From NCBI GenBank assembly GCA_016840425.1, contig JAEOSI010000043.1, positions 1-12,409 on the forward strand: a stretch of 12,409 nucleotides of DNA. The letters are read 5' to 3'. The notes beneath the pieces are model-generated. The model was not told the DNA's origin and did no database searches. It saw only the letters and a list, made by a program, of their open reading frames with translations. Below, piece by piece: positions 5,935 to 12,409 of the stretch. This DNA comes from Candidatus Wukongarchaeum yapensis (GTDB lineage: Archaea > Asgardarchaeota > Wukongarchaeia > Wukongarchaeales > Wukongarchaeaceae). Numbering within the stretch: position 1 is the stretch's first letter; every line of letters begins with the position of its first letter. The position numbers and the translations under genes were made by a program.

Positions 5935-6612
5935 TTATGGGAATAAGAAGATAGGTTTGTACTCAACATTACCACCAACGGAATCCATCTCTATTATAGC
6001 TGCGTCCCCACTTTGGGCAGGGCCGACATTGATACATGTCGTGTTCCCTATTTTTTCTACGCCTTTTGCCTCATGTATATGACCACAAAGAAGTAAAGCG
6101 GGCCGTTTCTCTGTTATAAATTTTCTAACGTTTTTACTTCCTGCATGGATCCCCATACGGGTTAAATCAAGGCTTGAACCATAAGGTGGTGAATGAGAAA
6201 CGACTACTCCATTTTGAACAGCTACGTCTTTAAGCCCTTTTTCTAAAACTTCTAAAATCTCTTTTTCAGTGATTTCAAAAGGTGTTTCGAAGGGGGTAGG
6301 GGGCGAACCTCCCACACCTATAAAAGCGACATTTTTAACGCGGGTTCCCCGCCCATGAAGACAAAACCCATTGACTTTTTCTTTTTCAAAATTTGCTAAT
6401 TCTGGAGGATCACAGTTTCCTGGAACATATAATACAGGTGCTTTTGTTTGGGCTAAATCGTTTATTATTTTATAGGCTAAGTTTACTGTTCCGAAATTTG
6501 TAATATCGCCAGTTAAAACTATGCAATCCACTTTTTCAGCCATCGCGAACTCTTTCACCGCTTTAACGGCTTCCAAAGTTCCATGGAAATCGGAAGCTAC
6601 AAACATCCTCAT
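5935..6612 (-). CDS. Calcineurin-like metallophosphoesterase (Icc-related archaeal type)
   Basis: Motifs SDFHG, GDITNFG, PGNCD, SHSPPY and CGHIHE. The start is placed at ATG 6612 because GGAGGT (6627-6622) lies 9 nt upstream. Confidence 0.92.
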   Translation of the reverse strand: MRMFVASDFHGTLEAVKAVKEFAMAEKVDCIVLTGDITNFGTVNLAYKIINDLAQTKAPVLYVPGNCDPPELANFEKEKVNGFCLHGRGTRVKNVAFIGVGGSPPTPFETPFEITEKEILEVLEKGLKDVAVQNGVVVSHSPPYGSSLDLTRMGIHAGSKNVRKFITEKRPALLLCGHIHEAKGVEKIGNTTCINVGPAQSGDAAIIEMDSVGGNVEYKPIFLFP

Positions 6613-6697
6613 AAGAACATGACCTCCCAAAAAGACCCAATACCAAAAAATTGTTTTAAGAAATTTAACTATCTTTAAAAGAATTCAAAAACGATAT

Positions 6698-6709
6698 TTT
6701 ATATACTTT
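6698..6709 (-). promoter_or_regulatory. Candidate BRE-TATA (AAAG TATATAAA) for the metallophosphoesterase
   Basis: Motif read on the - strand in the AT-rich divergent gap. Confidence 0.45.
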
Positions 6710-6781
6710 AATGTAAAACAACTTTAAAGAAGTTATCCTTTCCTTTAAAATATTATATGATTATAAAAAGTTAATTAAGTT

Positions 6782-6798
6782 AGAAGAAGCTTATAATA
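6782..6798 (+). promoter_or_regulatory. Candidate BRE-TATA (AGAAGAAGC TTATAATA) for hypC
   Basis: Purine-rich element followed by TTATAATA, about 50 nt upstream of the hypC start. Confidence 0.5.
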
Positions 6799-6849
6799 GG
6801 TATTAACTGTTATTGTTTAATTTTAATTTTTATAGATGAGTTGATGATT

Positions 6850-7080
6850 TTGTGTCTTGCGGTGCCTGCTAAGATTGTTGAGATAAAGGAAGATAGTAAA
6901 GCTATTGTGGACTTTGGCGGCGTAGAACGTGAAGTTTCATTACAACTTGTAGGAGACAGGGCAAAAGTAGGAGCTTATGTTTTAGTTCATGTGGGATTTG
7001 CTATCGAAGTCATTGACGAAAAAGAAGCACAACAAACCCTTGAAATTTGGCAAGAAATAGAAGAATACCAAGAAATATGA
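6850..7080 (+). CDS. hypC: [NiFe]-hydrogenase maturation chaperone HypC/HybG/HupF
   Basis: Motifs (M)CLAVPAKIVEI, VDFGGVEREVSL and GAYVLVHVGFAI. TTG 6850 places Cys at position 2, and GAGTTGAT (6838-6845) matches the SD GAGGTGAT at 7 of 8 positions. Confidence 0.96.
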   Translation: MCLAVPAKIVEIKEDSKAIVDFGGVEREVSLQLVGDRAKVGAYVLVHVGFAIEVIDEKEAQQTLEIWQEIEEYQEI

Positions 7081-7088
7081 GGTAGGAT

Positions 7089-8381
7089 TTAGAGCAGATT
7101 TTGATGGTTTTCGTTCTCTTCAAAAATTCCCATTTTTACTATATTTTTTGCTATCATTCTATCCCCTATATCTTGGTCTATTATGGTTCCAGGCATGATT
7201 TTTGAATAAGCGCCTATTTTTTTCCCTGGATGTATGCTAACATTAGATCCGATTGCTGTACCTTCGCCTATTACCGCTCCAAATTTTTTGAGAGCCGTGT
7301 CCACTTCTCTACCATTTATGTTCATTTTAATCGTCTCATCTTTGTTAAAAGATACGTTAACCGTGGTTACTGCAGCGCCTATATCTGTGTTCCTTCCTAC
7401 AATGCTATCTCCGATGAAACATAGCCTTCCAAGCTTCGTGTTCTCCATCAAGATGCAATTTTTTAATTCAACTCCAAATCCTACTATTACGTTCCGTCCA
7501 ATATCCGTATACTCCCTAATGAGGCTATTATTTCCGATATATGCGTTTGGTCCTATGTAGCATGGCCCGATGATGCATGCTCCAGACCTTATATGAGCAC
7601 CAGCAGAGATTAATGCGGGTCCTTCTATCTTAACCCCTGACTCGACTTGTGCCCTTTTAGAAATTCTTGCTTCTTCTTTTTTTTCCATGATAATTTTGTT
7701 GGCTTTAAGAATATGCCAAGGGCAACCCACATCCACCCAGCTTTTCTCCCATATGGCGCCGTAAAATTCCACACCTTGATCTATCAGGTTTTGGATGACT
7801 TGATCCAACACGGGGGTTTTCTCTAACATTTTAAAAATTTCAGAGCGAAGGATATAGATTCCTGCTGCCACATAGTTTCCAGGCTCTCTGCCAGCAAGGG
7901 GTTTTTCTACAATTTTTTTCACTCTTCCCTCTTCATCAATGAGAACCGAACCGTAGTGTTCAGGTTTTTTTGCTAGTGTGAGGGCAATAGTCATACAATA
8001 ATCAAAATAGTTGTGAGTGTTAAGTGTCCTTGAAATTATGTCTTTCTCTGCAACGATATCGCCGTGAACTAAAATAAAAAATTCTTCTTGCTCAAGAAGG
8101 TTTTTAGCCTGAAGGATGGCGTCTTCTACTCCGCTAGGGGTTTCTTGGATTACGTAATTTATGTTGACACCAAAATCAAAACCGTTCCTAAAATAGTTAA
8201 TTATCTGTTCTTTTCTATATCCTACAACTATAACAATATCTTTAATCCCGCAATTCCTAAGTTTTTCAATGATTCTTTGCAGGATAGGTTTTCCTTGAAG
8301 CACTATCATGGGCTTGGGCATCGTGGAAGTTATGGGAGCTAAGTTTTCCCCCAAACCTGCACACAATATTAAAGCCTTCAT
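7089..8381 (-). CDS. Archaeal GlmU-like sugar-1-phosphate nucleotidyltransferase/acetyltransferase (NTase plus left-handed beta-helix) with degenerate active sites
   Basis: Motifs MKALILCAG, PKPM, VVGY, HGD, YG, VEKP, WVDVGxPW, hexapeptide repeats, GDSIVG and KFGAVIG. SD-like GAGGG upstream; adjacent to glmS. No symbol is given because function is doubtful. Confidence 0.9.
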   Translation of the reverse strand: MKALILCAGLGENLAPITSTMPKPMIVLQGKPILQRIIEKLRNCGIKDIVIVVGYRKEQIINYFRNGFDFGVNINYVIQETPSGVEDAILQAKNLLEQEEFFILVHGDIVAEKDIISRTLNTHNYFDYCMTIALTLAKKPEHYGSVLIDEEGRVKKIVEKPLAGREPGNYVAAGIYILRSEIFKMLEKTPVLDQVIQNLIDQGVEFYGAIWEKSWVDVGCPWHILKANKIIMEKKEEARISKRAQVESGVKIEGPALISAGAHIRSGACIIGPCYIGPNAYIGNNSLIREYTDIGRNVIVGFGVELKNCILMENTKLGRLCFIGDSIVGRNTDIGAAVTTVNVSFNKDETIKMNINGREVDTALKKFGAVIGEGTAIGSNVSIHPGKKIGAYSKIMPGTIIDQDIGDRMIAKNIVKMGIFEENENHQNLL

Positions 8382-8424: not shown

Positions 8425-10248
8425 TTAGGGCACTGTCACAGACTTTGCTAGGTTTCTGGGTTTGTCAGGATCATAGCCTCGCTTAACAGCAGTATAATAG
8501 GCTATCAACTGTAGAGGCACCACATATAATATGGGGGAAAAAGGCAAAGAGAAGCCTTGGGGCATGTCTAAAAATTGATGAGAGACCTGGGCAAGCTCTT
8601 TATCACCTTCTTCTCCCAAAGTTATTATGTAAGCGCCTCTTGCACGCATCTCCATGACGTTGCCGAGGATATCTTTCCTTGTAACATCATTTGGAGCAAT
8701 AAAAATCACGGGAAAACCTTCATCGACCAAGGCAATAGGACCGTGTTTACTTTCTCCAGCAGAATATCCTTCCGCGTGAATATAAGAGATTTCTTTAAGT
8801 TTTAAAGCTCCTTCTAGGGCCGTTGATACGCTAACCCCTCTCCCAAGATAAAACGCGTTACTTTTCTCTGCCAAGAAACTTGCCAACGATTTGGTTTTTA
8901 TTTCAAGCTTATTGATAACTTGATTTAGGGCTTGGGGCGTTTGGTTTAATTTTTCCCTAAAATTTTCCGTGTATGCGGGGGAATTTGTTCCAAAATTATC
9001 TAAAAGTTTTAAAGCGATCCTGGTGAAAGTTGTTAACTGAACTAGGAATGTTTTCGTTGCTGCCACTCCGATCTCTGGTCCTGCTTGGGTGTAGAAAACA
9101 AGGTCTGCTTCCCTTGTAATACCGCTTCCTAAAACGTTGGTTATAGCTAAAACTTTAGATTTTTTGCTTTGAGCATGGCGAATAGCCCTTAGAGTATCTA
9201 TTGTTTCCCCCGATTGACTAACCGCTATAACCACGTCATTCTCGCTTAAAGAGTTTCCAACAAGGTTGGCAAATTCTGACGAGATGATCGCTTGGGAGGG
9301 TATTCCGATCGTTTGACTTAACACGGATTGGGCGGCAAGTCCTGAATGGTAAGAGGTTCCTGCTGCCACGATATAAAGCTGTTCAGCCTGCGAAATAATC
9401 TCAGCAAACTTATCAATTGTTTGCTGTTTAAATTTTAAAGTGTCTCGTAAGGCCTTTGGTTGTTCGTGTATCTCTTTAAGCATAAAGTGAGGATAACCGC
9501 TTTTTGAGGCCATGTCAGCGGTCCAAGAAACGACAACAGGCTCCCTCTCAATTTTCAATCCGTTGACGTTTTCTATAGCAACTGATTCGGATCCTATTGT
9601 TGCTAATTCTCCATCGTGAAGAACTATCACCTTATTTGTCCAAAAAAGAAATGCTGGGATATCTGAAGCACAATAGTTTCCATCCTCACCCAGCCCGATA
9701 ACAAGGGGGCTCTCATTCCTAGCGCAATACAACCGCCCGGGATCCCTTGCACTAACAACAGCTAAAGCATAGGATCCTTCAAGTCTTCTAATTGTTTTTT
9801 TAATGGCTTCAAAGATCCCACAACCATTACTCATAAACTCCTCAATAAGGTGGGCAATGCACTCGGTATCTGTCTCGCTTTTAAAATTATGACCTTTAGA
9901 AGTTAACTCCTTGCGTAACTTGAGGAAATTTTCTATAACCCCATTATGTACAACGGCGATAGAATCTGAACAATCAAGATGGGGATGGGCATTTTCCCTT
10001 GAAGGAGCGCCATGTGTCGCCCATCTGGTGTGCGCTATTCCGAGGGGGCCTGGCAGTTCTTCGGGGTTAATCTGAACAAAAACTTCGTCAATTTTCCCTT
10101 TATCTTTTTCAAAATAAATGCGATTTTCATGAACTGTAGCGATACCACAAGAATCATAACCCCGATACTCTAAAGCTTTTAAAGCCCTATGTAGAATGTA
10201 AGTAATACCGCCCCCACTATGGGAAACGAAACCCACGATGCCGCACAT
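8425..10248 (-). CDS. glmS: Glutamine--fructose-6-phosphate transaminase (isomerizing)
   Basis: MCGIVG (catalytic Cys1 after Met removal, so the start is ATG 10248 and not 10263), LEYRGYDS, HTRWATHG, HNG, SQSGET, AATKT, EGALKLKE, KHGP and RNLAKSVTV. Confidence 0.97.
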   Translation of the reverse strand: MCGIVGFVSHSGGGITYILHRALKALEYRGYDSCGIATVHENRIYFEKDKGKIDEVFVQINPEELPGPLGIAHTRWATHGAPSRENAHPHLDCSDSIAVVHNGVIENFLKLRKELTSKGHNFKSETDTECIAHLIEEFMSNGCGIFEAIKKTIRRLEGSYALAVVSARDPGRLYCARNESPLVIGLGEDGNYCASDIPAFLFWTNKVIVLHDGELATIGSESVAIENVNGLKIEREPVVVSWTADMASKSGYPHFMLKEIHEQPKALRDTLKFKQQTIDKFAEIISQAEQLYIVAAGTSYHSGLAAQSVLSQTIGIPSQAIISSEFANLVGNSLSENDVVIAVSQSGETIDTLRAIRHAQSKKSKVLAITNVLGSGITREADLVFYTQAGPEIGVAATKTFLVQLTTFTRIALKLLDNFGTNSPAYTENFREKLNQTPQALNQVINKLEIKTKSLASFLAEKSNAFYLGRGVSVSTALEGALKLKEISYIHAEGYSAGESKHGPIALVDEGFPVIFIAPNDVTRKDILGNVMEMRARGAYIITLGEEGDKELAQVSHQFLDMPQGFSLPFSPILYVVPLQLIAYYTAVKRGYDPDKPRNLAKSVTVP

Positions 10249-10295
10249 TCTAAAGACCTTCAAAAAAAGAAACTTTATCTGCTGTAAGTTTATTC

Positions 10296-10310
10296 TTTTT
10301 TAAAGTTTTT
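10296..10310 (-). promoter_or_regulatory. Candidate BRE-TATA (AAAAAC TTTAAAAAA) for glmS
   Basis: TATA-like box about 55 nt upstream of ATG 10248; mirrors the + strand element at 10402-10418. Confidence 0.5.
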
Positions 10311-10340
10311 AAATAAATTTCAATTAGTGAATAGATTACT

Positions 10341-10356
10341 ATTTATTTAAATAAAT
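10341..10356. promoter_or_regulatory. Perfect 16-bp palindrome ATTTATTTAAATAAAT (candidate operator or bidirectional TATA)
   Basis: Self-complementary, and centred 100 nt from the glmS ATG and 102 nt from the GT-C GTG. Confidence 0.5.
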
Positions 10357-10401
10357 TACTGTTGTGCTTTTCCCATTTTTTATTTACTAAAATACGTCGT
10401 T

Positions 10402-10418
10402 AAAAAAGCTTTAAAAAA
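10402..10418 (+). promoter_or_regulatory. Candidate BRE-TATA (AAAAAAGC TTTAAAAAA) for the GT-C gene
   Basis: TATA-like box about 40 nt upstream of GTG 10451. Confidence 0.5.
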
Positions 10419-10450
10419 TAGTTTAAGGACCAATTAATCAGCAGAAGAAT

Positions 10451-12061
10451 GTGAATGTGATTTTTAGGAAGGATCATTCTTTGAGCTTTATTAAAAACAT
10501 TAATTTTTTAAAAAATAACAAGGAAAAAACAGTTCTTTTAATCATATTTACAGTTGCTTTTATTCTAAGAATAATAACGTCATTCCTTATAGCAACTAGC
10601 GGGGTAGATGATGCTTACACTTGGTGGATTCTTGCGGTTGAAACAAAGCATAACGACCTTGTTTATACGGATCCCTGGGGTGGCCATGATAAAATTTGGC
10701 CGCCTTTTTATGCAACTGTTTCTGCTTTTTTCATGATGATTTTTTTCTCTGAAAAAATCTGGATTCCAAAGCTTATAAGCGTTTTTTGTGGTGCGTATGC
10801 TGTGGCTTTAACCTACCTTATAACGAAGAAGATAGTGACAAGCGTTAATAAAGAGGGGTTAAAAAATTCTGGAAGAAGTATTATGGATAAGGCGCCTTTG
10901 GCTGCTGCTCTCCTCCTTGCTTTTAATCCATATCATATTTTTTACACTTCTAAGTCGATAAATGAACCGCTTTACAGCGCTTTATTATTGTCTGCTATAT
11001 ATTTTCTTTTGAAAGCGGAAAAGGCGAACAATTATATTTTTTTAACTGCTGTTTTCTTATTTTTTGCCAGTTTAACCCGTTATGAGATATGGGTTTTATT
11101 ACCGTTTTTTGCATGGATATCATTAAAGCAGGGGCGTTTAACTCTTACAAAGTTTTTTGCATCAGCAATAATAGTTTTATCAGGACCGTTTATTTGGATT
11201 CTGAGGCAACATTATGTTTATGGGTCGTGGAGGGATTTTATTGAGCATTATACGAGCGGGGGAGGGGCTTCTTCGAGTTCAGCGACAGGAGACCCGTTTC
11301 TTAACGCGTTATTTGTAATTTCCACAGCAGGAGTTATGACTTTTGGCATAGCATGGTTTACTTTAATATACGGCTGGAAAAAACTCACTGGATCAAAAAA
11401 GAAGGAAAAAGTTGTTAACGGTAATGGTATTATTAATTTTAGAGATTTTGAGGTGGTTTACGCGTTTTTTGTGGCGTATATTTTGTTAATGGTGGTTTCT
11501 GCAGCTTTAGGGGTTTTTCCAGCATGGGTACGTTACCACATAGCATATATTCCTACCGTGTTCATTATTTTCGGTATAGCGTTTGCTGAAAAAATCTTTC
11601 CACTTCTTCAAAAAATGAGCAAAAAAGCAAGCCTTTTTTCAAAAAGGGAGTTTTACGCAAGTCTTTTACTTGTACAGCTTTTACTTCTTCCAGCTTTTTC
11701 CCTTGAAGGAAAGCAACAAGACTCAATAATAGATGCAGGGGAGATCTTTGCAAGACAATATGAGGGAGGGACAATAATAAACGATCTCCCCTCCTTTATC
11801 TATGGAAGCGGTCTCCCCATTGAAAAATTCATTAGAAGTAGCGATATACCGGATGAAACATCTCTTTGGGGAGGATACCTCAAATCAGAAAATGTCACAT
11901 ATCTGGTATGGACCAACGCAGATTATGCAAAAATCAGCGACTTCGATGAAAACTTTATCAAAAACAATGAAACAGGGGTAGAATTCATCCTTATCTACTC
12001 AACAAACGAATCTACCTCCCGCATATGTAACGTATACAAAATCGTAGACTATGGGATTTAG
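10451..12061 (+). CDS. GT-C fold polytopic membrane glycosyltransferase (PMT_2/ArnT-like, lipid-linked sugar donor)
   Basis: About a dozen hydrophobic segments, an acidic DD pair in the first external loop (SGVDDAY), WPPFY, SINEPLY and LTRYE, with a soluble C-terminal domain. The start may be TTG 10481 (AGGAAGGA upstream). Substrate unknown. Confidence 0.8.
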   Translation: MNVIFRKDHSLSFIKNINFLKNNKEKTVLLIIFTVAFILRIITSFLIATSGVDDAYTWWILAVETKHNDLVYTDPWGGHDKIWPPFYATVSAFFMMIFFSEKIWIPKLISVFCGAYAVALTYLITKKIVTSVNKEGLKNSGRSIMDKAPLAAALLLAFNPYHIFYTSKSINEPLYSALLLSAIYFLLKAEKANNYIFLTAVFLFFASLTRYEIWVLLPFFAWISLKQGRLTLTKFFASAIIVLSGPFIWILRQHYVYGSWRDFIEHYTSGGGASSSSATGDPFLNALFVISTAGVMTFGIAWFTLIYGWKKLTGSKKKEKVVNGNGIINFRDFEVVYAFFVAYILLMVVSAALGVFPAWVRYHIAYIPTVFIIFGIAFAEKIFPLLQKMSKKASLFSKREFYASLLLVQLLLLPAFSLEGKQQDSIIDAGEIFARQYEGGTIINDLPSFIYGSGLPIEKFIRSSDIPDETSLWGGYLKSENVTYLVWTNADYAKISDFDENFIKNNETGVEFILIYSTNESTSRICNVYKIVDYGI

Positions 12062-12217: not shown

Positions 12218-12409
12218 ATGGGAGTTCTTGGAGCCACGTGGGCATTCATAGTTCTCATCGCCAAGATCGGGATCGTTTTTTGCAGTGTATGTCTTGCGGT
12301 TTACGGACTTAATATTTACATTTTAGCCTATCTTTCAGGGAAGGGAAAAGATCGATATCGGCAAAAGTATAAAAAGAAGCTTGAAAGATATCCGATGGTC
12401 ACGATACAG
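12218..12409 (+). CDS. Family 2 (cellulose-synthase-like) glycosyltransferase, N-terminal part (runs off the window end)
   Basis: Not in the ORF track; translated by hand: MGVLGATWAFIVLIAKIGIVFCSVCLAVYGLNIYILAYLSGKGKDRYRQKYKKKLERYPMVTIQ. This is a TM helix, a basic linker and the start of the PxVTIQ(LPxYNE) GT2 motif. GAGGAG SD at 12201-12206. Confidence 0.78.
   Translation, partial: MGVLGATWAFIVLIAKIGIVFCSVCLAVYGLNIYILAYLSGKGKDRYRQKYKKKLERYPMVTIQ

Follow-up and report, generated by a model that had tools for sequence, protein, structure and literature searches.

The stretch of DNA analysed here (the window) comprises 12,409 nucleotides, positions 1 to 12,409 of contig JAEOSI010000043.1 of Candidatus Wukongarchaeum yapensis (assembly GCA_016840425.1). 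Its minus strand carries a glmS gene (8425..10248) and, directly downstream after a gap of 43 bp, a GlmU-like gene (7089..8381) that consists of a single open reading frame (ORF) of 430 amino acids. The arrangement is operon-like, a Shine-Dalgarno-like ribosome-binding motif, GGAG, lies 5' of the ATG of the GlmU-like gene, and the order glmS then paralog is retained in five out of five orthologous contigs. The preliminary description of this DNA had reported such a full-length gene downstream of glmS, and it proved to be real. GlmS has 607 residues counted from MCGIVG, with GATase_6/7 and two SIS domains. Its mechanically called ORF begins at a TTG (10263); the orthologs start at the ATG of MCGIVG (10248), and a start at this position provides the N-terminal Cys required by glutamine amidotransferases. 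As described below, the GlmU-like paralog is a selected member of an old, unnamed GlmU subfamily in which key residues of both reactions are replaced.

The protein encoded by the GlmU-like gene (the window protein) matches PF00483 over residues 2-231 (E 1.5e-38) and contains hexapeptide repeats. It also passes the TIGR03992 model of archaeal GlmU, with 359.9 bits as compared to a cut-off of 292.1. The nucleotidyltransferase-like domain (PF00483) occupies residues 1-235 (7677..8381, minus strand, as for all features of this gene) and the left-handed beta-helix domain, recognised by Hexapep and LbH matches, residues 236-405 (7167..7676). The AlphaFold model, in which the latter domain is made of short, regularly spaced beta strands, has a predicted local distance difference test score (pLDDT) of 93.5 and a predicted template modelling score of 0.90. 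Foldseek superposed it on ST0452, the GlmU of Sulfurisphaera tokodaii, with template modelling (TM) scores of 0.86/0.93 and a root-mean-square deviation of 2.1 Å. The C-terminal tail (residues 406-430, 7089..7166) is weakly constrained and has pLDDT values of 53-78.

The active sites were inspected by alignment to ST0452 (PDB 2ggo/5z09) and to the genome's own canonical paralog. In the nucleotidyltransferase domain, the canonical P-loop G-x-G-x-R-L reads G9-L-G-E12-N13-L (8340..8357), with loss of the catalytic Arg; the pocket Asn of the I-N-A-G motif is Ala at position 172; and the sugar-1-phosphate loop S-x-R-G-E-x-E-x-T is missing at residues 186-194 (7800..7826), a segment that counts 18 residues in the window protein as compared to 25 in the canonical copy. 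K23, Q79, G84, D108, the E159-K160 pair and D217 are retained. In the beta-helix, R319-L-C-F322 (7416..7427) replaces the acetyltransferase motif H-L-S-Y: the HMMER alignment places H308 and Y311 of ST0452 at R319 and F322, and N331 at the conserved N342. The preliminary description had listed these substitutions, the loop deletion and the persistence of K23, Q79, G84, D108 and the E-K pair on the nucleotide side, all of which were confirmed. Two of its details hold only in part. In G-L-G-E12-N13 the change at N13 is genuine, but E12 is normal because the P-loop of ST0452 itself reads G-S-G-E-R-L. The replacement of PWD by PWH is also genuine, but it is not diagnostic, because both ST0452 and the Heimdall copies discussed below have PWN.

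The importance of some of these positions is known from bacterial GlmU. E348 and H362 are key catalytic residues of the S. aureus and S. pneumoniae enzymes, whose acetyltransferase centre is formed by all three monomers of the trimer; E305 and R319 of the window protein occupy the equivalent positions (PMC11947611). In M. tuberculosis GlmU, H374A abolishes the acetyltransferase activity and K26A the uridylyltransferase activity (PMC4619583). Judging from its residues, the window protein probably no longer performs the standard uridylyltransferase and glucosamine 1-phosphate (GlcN-1-P) acetyltransferase reactions.

The same deviations were found well beyond this genome. We coined the name R-family for proteins defined by the deletion of the sugar loop together with the His-to-Arg change at the acetyltransferase site. 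The corresponding signature (short loop and G-R-L-S-[FY]-[IV]-G-D-S) was present in 116 of the 120 best matches from a collection of 5.8 billion proteins, and scanning 185,579 species genomes with the motif as seed gave 393 R-family loci. The best 80 of these loci were inspected; the genome searches rely on metagenome-assembled genomes (MAGs) of varying completeness. The window protein belongs to this family, as it has the short loop, G-R-L-[SC]-[FY]-[IV]-G-D-S and W-E-x-x-W. Hosts among the best 80 loci comprise most Asgard lineages and several bacterial phyla, mainly Nitrospinota, with Nitrospirota, SAR324, Cloacimonadota, Binatota, Acidobacteriota, Margulisiibacteriota and Coatesbacteria as further bacterial hosts. 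On a profile built for the R-family, the window gene scored 632 bits and the canonical copy of the same genome 406. About 80 of the 151 sampled Asgard genomes contained a gene that reached 466 bits or more on this profile; one large family, accounting for 30 of the sampled Asgard genomes, had a single gene only, at about 400 bits. The possibility that the bacterial members correspond to TIGR03991 (alt_bact_glmU) was rejected (74-103 bits as compared to a cut-off of 225). No description of the R-family was found in the literature on GlmU in Asgard archaea, ST0452 residues, eIF2B in relation to Asgard archaea, or GlmU pseudoenzymes.

On TIGR03992, R-family proteins scored 285-371 bits with respect to 458-550 for canonical copies. 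With such scores, annotation pipelines call them bifunctional GlmU, under the name 'bifunctional sugar-1-phosphate nucleotidylyltransferase/acetyltransferase'. Their residues make both standard reactions improbable, so that the wrong gene could be taken as GlmU when the metabolism of Asgard archaea and Nitrospinota is reconstructed. In the window genome the right candidates are present elsewhere, as the preliminary description had predicted: a canonical glmU is located on contig C237 (522 bits on TIGR03992, about 160 bits above the window protein, with GEGKRL, the loop SQRGEFEVTES and GHLSYVGDS) and glmM on contig C128 (448 bits). Canonical and R-family copies also coexist in the sister species and in five out of five other Asgard genomes checked, including two complete Heimdallarchaeum chromosomes.

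A quick IQ-TREE analysis of 95 sequences (9 canonical and 86 R-family) separated canonical GlmU from the R-family with a Shimodaira-Hasegawa-like approximate likelihood ratio test (SH-aLRT) value of 98, the R-family being monophyletic against the canonical sequences. Clade A (35 rows) contains sequences from the Sif, Borr, Frey, Jord, Baldr, Odin, Hel, Loki, Thor and Hermod lineages. Clade B (51 rows, SH-aLRT 96) consists of the Hod subclade to which the window protein belongs (5 rows, stem 0.58), a Heimdall group (14 rows), two unplaced sequences and all 30 bacterial ones. The details of this tree are provisional, because the search was quick and several branches are long. Two intermediate forms (P0106 and P0122), in which the sugar loop is deleted and the catalytic His is retained (GHLA[FY]VGDS), branch with long branches at the base of the canonical group. 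A copy of clade A type was found in a MAG labelled as Hodarchaeota (L019, DZ1B.307); it has 49% identity and groups with a Promethearchaeota sequence, so that either both clades occur in Hodarchaeota or this MAG is mislabelled or mis-binned.

The P-loop Arg distinguishes the two clades, being present in 9 out of 9 canonical and 35 out of 35 clade A sequences and in none of the 51 of clade B, where it is replaced by N or E in the Hod subclade, D or E in the Heimdall group and N, T, G or K in bacteria. The window gene shows both marks of clade B, the lost Arg (N13) and glmS as immediate neighbour. At the acetyltransferase site, the His of all nine canonical sequences is Arg (R319) in 84 of the 86 R-family ones; the two exceptions are a Gly in the Heimdall group and a Gln in clade A (Asgardarchaeum). 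The residue at the Tyr site is Phe in 57 and Tyr in 29 of the 86. Around these positions the pocket of the beta-helix is strikingly uniform: R289, E305, K307, D325, S326 and K366 are invariant in the 86 sequences and N342 is retained in 81. We take R333, E349, K351, N377 and K392 to be the E. coli GlmU equivalents of R289, E305, K307, N342 and K366, respectively. The R-family also has a motif of its own, W211-E212-x-x-W215-x-D217 (7731..7751), recognised in the residue alignment, whose W211 and E212 are near-invariant in the family and variable in canonical GlmU. The Heimdall copies (L038-L064) show further decay of the nucleotidyltransferase site (E159 to I, L, M or V, the residue at 172 from N to D, and that at 13 from R to D or E), keep the beta-helix pocket and lack the C-terminal tail.

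Pairwise ratios of nonsynonymous to synonymous substitution rates (dN/dS) were calculated among the five orthologs of the Hod subclade, with dS values of 0.35-0.65. The ratio was 0.12-0.18 for the whole paralog, as compared to 0.10-0.16 for the adjacent glmS, and similar values were obtained for the nucleotidyltransferase (0.12-0.21) and beta-helix (0.11-0.18) domains. The C-terminal tail, with 0.33-1.5, is the only relaxed part. The paralog is therefore under purifying selection in both domains, with no local decay, and the substitutions form a conserved clade signature with dN/dS below 1, a point that the preliminary description had wanted checked. It had also named recent decay or an assembly error as a check on its reading; close orthologs likewise lack the catalytic residues. 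The residue differences are not due to chance, because each is common to close orthologs and most to the whole subfamily.

These results bear on the view that the gene is a recent pseudogene, an assembly artefact or a proto-eIF2B gamma/epsilon translation factor, which we regard as effectively refuted. The domain architecture is indeed common to eIF2B gamma and epsilon, and a weak match to PF25084, the model of the eIF2B beta-helix, was obtained (46 bits). However, the frame is intact and purifying selection is seen in five independent assemblies. The same DNA stretch is moreover present in marine-sediment, mangrove and marsh metagenome runs from 13 studies, although two of the best-matching ones may be the source sample of the window's assembly; no RNA run was listed as containing the gene. 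The PF25084 score is below the cut-off of 54 bits, neither the 60 best matches of the window protein by sequence nor the 50 best by fold include an eIF2B chain, and the genomic context is that of hexosamine and glycan synthesis rather than translation. Membership in eIF2B was rejected on these grounds.

The only widely shared neighbour of R-family genes is glmS. It is adjacent to the paralog in 34 of the 51 clade B loci and within the flank of none of the 35 clade A loci, for which neighbour clustering returned lineage-specific housekeeping genes only and no common partner. The paralog has glmS upstream in the Hod and Heimdall groups and immediately downstream in 26 of the 30 bacterial loci. 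At the Nitrospirota locus L085, glmS-like genes are found on both sides of the R-family gene (6161-7972 and 9212-11029), with 35% and 40% identity to the glmS of the window.

Among the 30 bacterial carriers, a full-length GlmU was found in only three. About 21 carry a GlmU that is uridylyltransferase-only (model positions 2-240) and often lies directly upstream of the paralog, and at least 20 have a separate beta-helix protein of 230-340 amino acids with the canonical motif A-G-H-F-A-Y-[IV]-G-D-S. It follows that in most bacterial carriers the R-family protein is a third GlmU-like component. The candidate explanation that it is the missing acetyltransferase half of a split GlmU is weakened, at least 20 of the 30 carriers having the separate His-type protein. 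As a side observation, GlmU is apparently split in many Nitrospinota, Nitrospirota and related bacteria (L066, L073, L074, L090, L091 and L110-L130), into a uridylyltransferase-only gene of about 250-270 amino acids and a stand-alone His-type beta-helix acetyltransferase of 230-340. The typical bacterial operon reads uridylyltransferase-only glmU, R-family gene, glmS, and in four genomes the uridylyltransferase domain lies inside an ORF of 633-668 amino acids.

What the nucleotidyltransferase domain does may be considered first. The protein could be a sugar-1-phosphate nucleotidyltransferase with an altered substrate, its beta-helix serving oligomerisation only, as in GMPPB or long RmlA. Such an enzyme would account for the retention of K23, Q79, G84, D108, E159-K160 and D217 in the window protein, for the new conserved pocket residues W211-E212 and for the glycosyltransferase genes nearby. 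We consider it improbable, however, since none of the 51 members of clade B has the P-loop Arg that every canonical and clade A sequence carries. The P-loop varies at positions 10, 12 and 13 even among the five orthologs, which are 84-98% identical, and of the ten positions at which the window protein differs from its 98% identical ortholog, two fall within the six-residue motif (binomial p ~0.008). In addition, E159 is also lost in the Heimdall sister group, and the invariant pocket of the beta-helix would be left unexplained.

This pocket deserves separate consideration. The protein had been described as looking "dead" in both domains. The catalytic substitutions stand, but "dead" overstates the case for the beta-helix, its acetyltransferase pocket being otherwise conserved. 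This conservation, together with that of the Arg that replaces the His, indicates ligand binding or a changed chemistry rather than a dead site, and the pattern of residues suggests that the beta-helix is a working ligand site. Changed chemistry is what the main rival explanation proposes, namely that the beta-helix domain would transfer an acyl group to a hexosamine phosphate (GlcN-1-P, galactosamine 1-phosphate or glucosamine 6-phosphate), the degenerate nucleotidyltransferase domain being only an allosteric or structural module. Arg319 would stand in for the His base by lowering the pKa of the amine or by binding the substrate. N-acetyltransferases of the beta-helix type that have no catalytic base are known, such as QdtC and WlbB. 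The residues of the GlcN-1-P site other than His and Tyr are kept (R289, E305, K307 and K366 in all sequences, N342 in most), E305 corresponds to the second of the residues described as catalytic (PMC11947611), and the link to glmS suits a pathway enzyme. Moreover, no other GlmU-type acetyltransferase was found in 6 of the 30 bacterial carriers, which keeps an enzymatic role alive. We nevertheless hold an acyltransferase to be somewhat unlikely. Replacement of the His by Ala abolishes the activity of M. tuberculosis GlmU (PMC4619583), most carriers already encode a His-type acetyltransferase, fused or stand-alone, and the family conserves neither the basic residues at positions R333, K337 and K340 of ST0452 nor the canonical S-G-R-R motif. 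The Gly and Gln found at position 319 in the two exceptional sequences also speak against a catalytic Arg.

The explanation we put first, with about an even chance of being correct, is that the paralog is a selected metabolite-sensing subunit with a regulatory or scaffolding role in hexosamine synthesis. Both pockets would be kept as ligand sites: a putative nucleotide or UDP-sugar site formed by Q79, D108, E159-K160 and W211-E212, and a putative site for sugar phosphate or acyl-CoA in the beta-helix, formed by R289, E305, K307, R319, N342 and K366. We take a beta-helix trimer to be the most likely form of the paralog, and GlmS or the catalytic GlmU to be what it would tune, by direct contact or in mixed oligomers. 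A complex prediction with GlmS (residues 6-612) and the paralog (1-392) gave a score of 0.00 in a run without controls, and weighs neither way.

Several observations weigh against a regulatory subunit. The conservation of the pocket in all but the His may fit a working acyltransferase, either base-independent or Arg-assisted. In the six bacterial carriers, all incomplete MAGs, for which no full GlmU and no stand-alone His-type acetyltransferase was found, the enzyme could be the R-family protein itself. The nucleotidyltransferase residues of clade A are all present, so that inactivity is not uniform across the family. Finally, Arg loss and glmS linkage go together on account of a single branch of the tree: both changes lie on the stem of clade B and therefore count as one evolutionary event, not as a repeated correlation.

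A more specific form of the regulatory-subunit explanation, which we advance tentatively and with less confidence than the general one, is that clade B is a cross-domain, glmS-linked pseudo-GlmU that would sense UDP-N-acetylglucosamine (UDP-GlcNAc), UTP or acetyl-CoA through two vestigial sites and control the flux through GlmS or GlmU. It would be an unrecognised prokaryotic counterpart of GMPPA-type regulators, present in Heimdall and Hod archaea and exchanged with split-GlmU bacteria such as Nitrospinota. Heimdall and Hod archaea are the closest known relatives of eukaryotes. If a sensor or regulator is indeed encoded here, it would represent a new mode of control for the committed step of UDP-GlcNAc synthesis, a pathway that feeds N-glycans, S-layers, peptidoglycan and lipopolysaccharide. 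It would also be a prokaryotic case of an inactive nucleotidyltransferase plus beta-helix regulator, a type so far represented by GMPPA, KONJAC, GlgD and eIF2B. If instead the protein were an Arg-dependent acyltransferase, it would embody a new catalytic solution within the beta-helix family.

The remainder of the window contains other genes. A small HypC/HupF-like gene (6841-7080, plus strand, 79 amino acids) is convergent with the paralog and is found at the same position in five out of five orthologous contigs. Divergent from glmS, a gene at 10451-12061 (plus strand) codes for a protein of 536 amino acids with about eight hydrophobic segments and no Pfam match, which is a possible GT-C-like membrane glycosyltransferase. 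Next comes the start of a glycosyltransferase gene of family GT2 (12218-12409, plus strand). In an orthologous contig (L102), a further gene follows, for a 377-aa protein with nucleotidyltransferase and beta-helix domains. A creatininase-fold gene was recognised by its Pfam match at 2222-2953.

With respect to known systems, the window protein has the domain architecture of eIF2B gamma and epsilon and, like them, degenerate catalytic residues; in contrast to them, it has neither a W2/HEAT domain nor a translation-related context. Catalytically impaired nucleotidyltransferase plus beta-helix paralogs that stand beside an active paralog are also known in GMPPA (PDB 7d72) and in plant KONJAC with VTC1 (PDB 8yre), which sense the product nucleotide-sugar. 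The window genome resembles these systems in that a catalytically intact paralog, the canonical glmU, coexists, and the fold of the window model is similar (TM scores normalised to the query of 0.64-0.69). The GMPPA/eIF2B-gamma-like character suggested in the preliminary description does not, however, extend to specific kinship. In the case of GMPPA there is no specific relationship in sequence (51.6 bits as compared to 222 for ST0452), the match to PF25087, the model of the GMPPB beta-helix, is below its cut-off (31.5 vs. 39), and ST0452 is far ahead of the other solved chains in both sequence and fold. The pathway is that of hexosamine and not of mannose, and the linkage is with glmS, which encodes the first enzyme of the pathway, and not with the pyrophosphorylase. 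In prokaryotes and plants, GlgD and the large subunit of ADP-glucose pyrophosphorylase are precedents for a subunit of nucleotidyltransferase plus beta-helix type that has no catalytic role and modulates a catalytic paralog. They belong to a different subfamily (glgC models gave 75 bits on the window protein), and GlgD is encoded beside its catalytic partner, whereas the window gene is beside glmS. The pairs GMPPA/GMPPB, KONJAC/VTC1 and GlgD/GlgC are thus to be regarded as functional analogies only. GlmR (YvcK), RapZ and the glmS ribozyme sense a metabolite of the hexosamine pathway and adjust the output of GlmS; if the regulatory explanation is right, the control logic would be the same, with unrelated folds and mechanisms. 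The closest homolog is ST0452 (222 bits; 335 bits by profile), an archaeal GlmU of the TIGR03992 type, as is MJ1101. The window protein shares with it the two-domain architecture, K23, Q79, D108, the E-K pair, N342 and most of the GlcN-1-P pocket; unlike ST0452, it has no P-loop Arg, no S-x-R-G-E loop, no N172 and neither the catalytic His nor the catalytic Tyr, and it has acquired the conserved W211-E212 and R319, absent from GlmU of the ST0452 type. By homology, the window protein belongs to a derived branch within archaeal GlmU of the ST0452 type.

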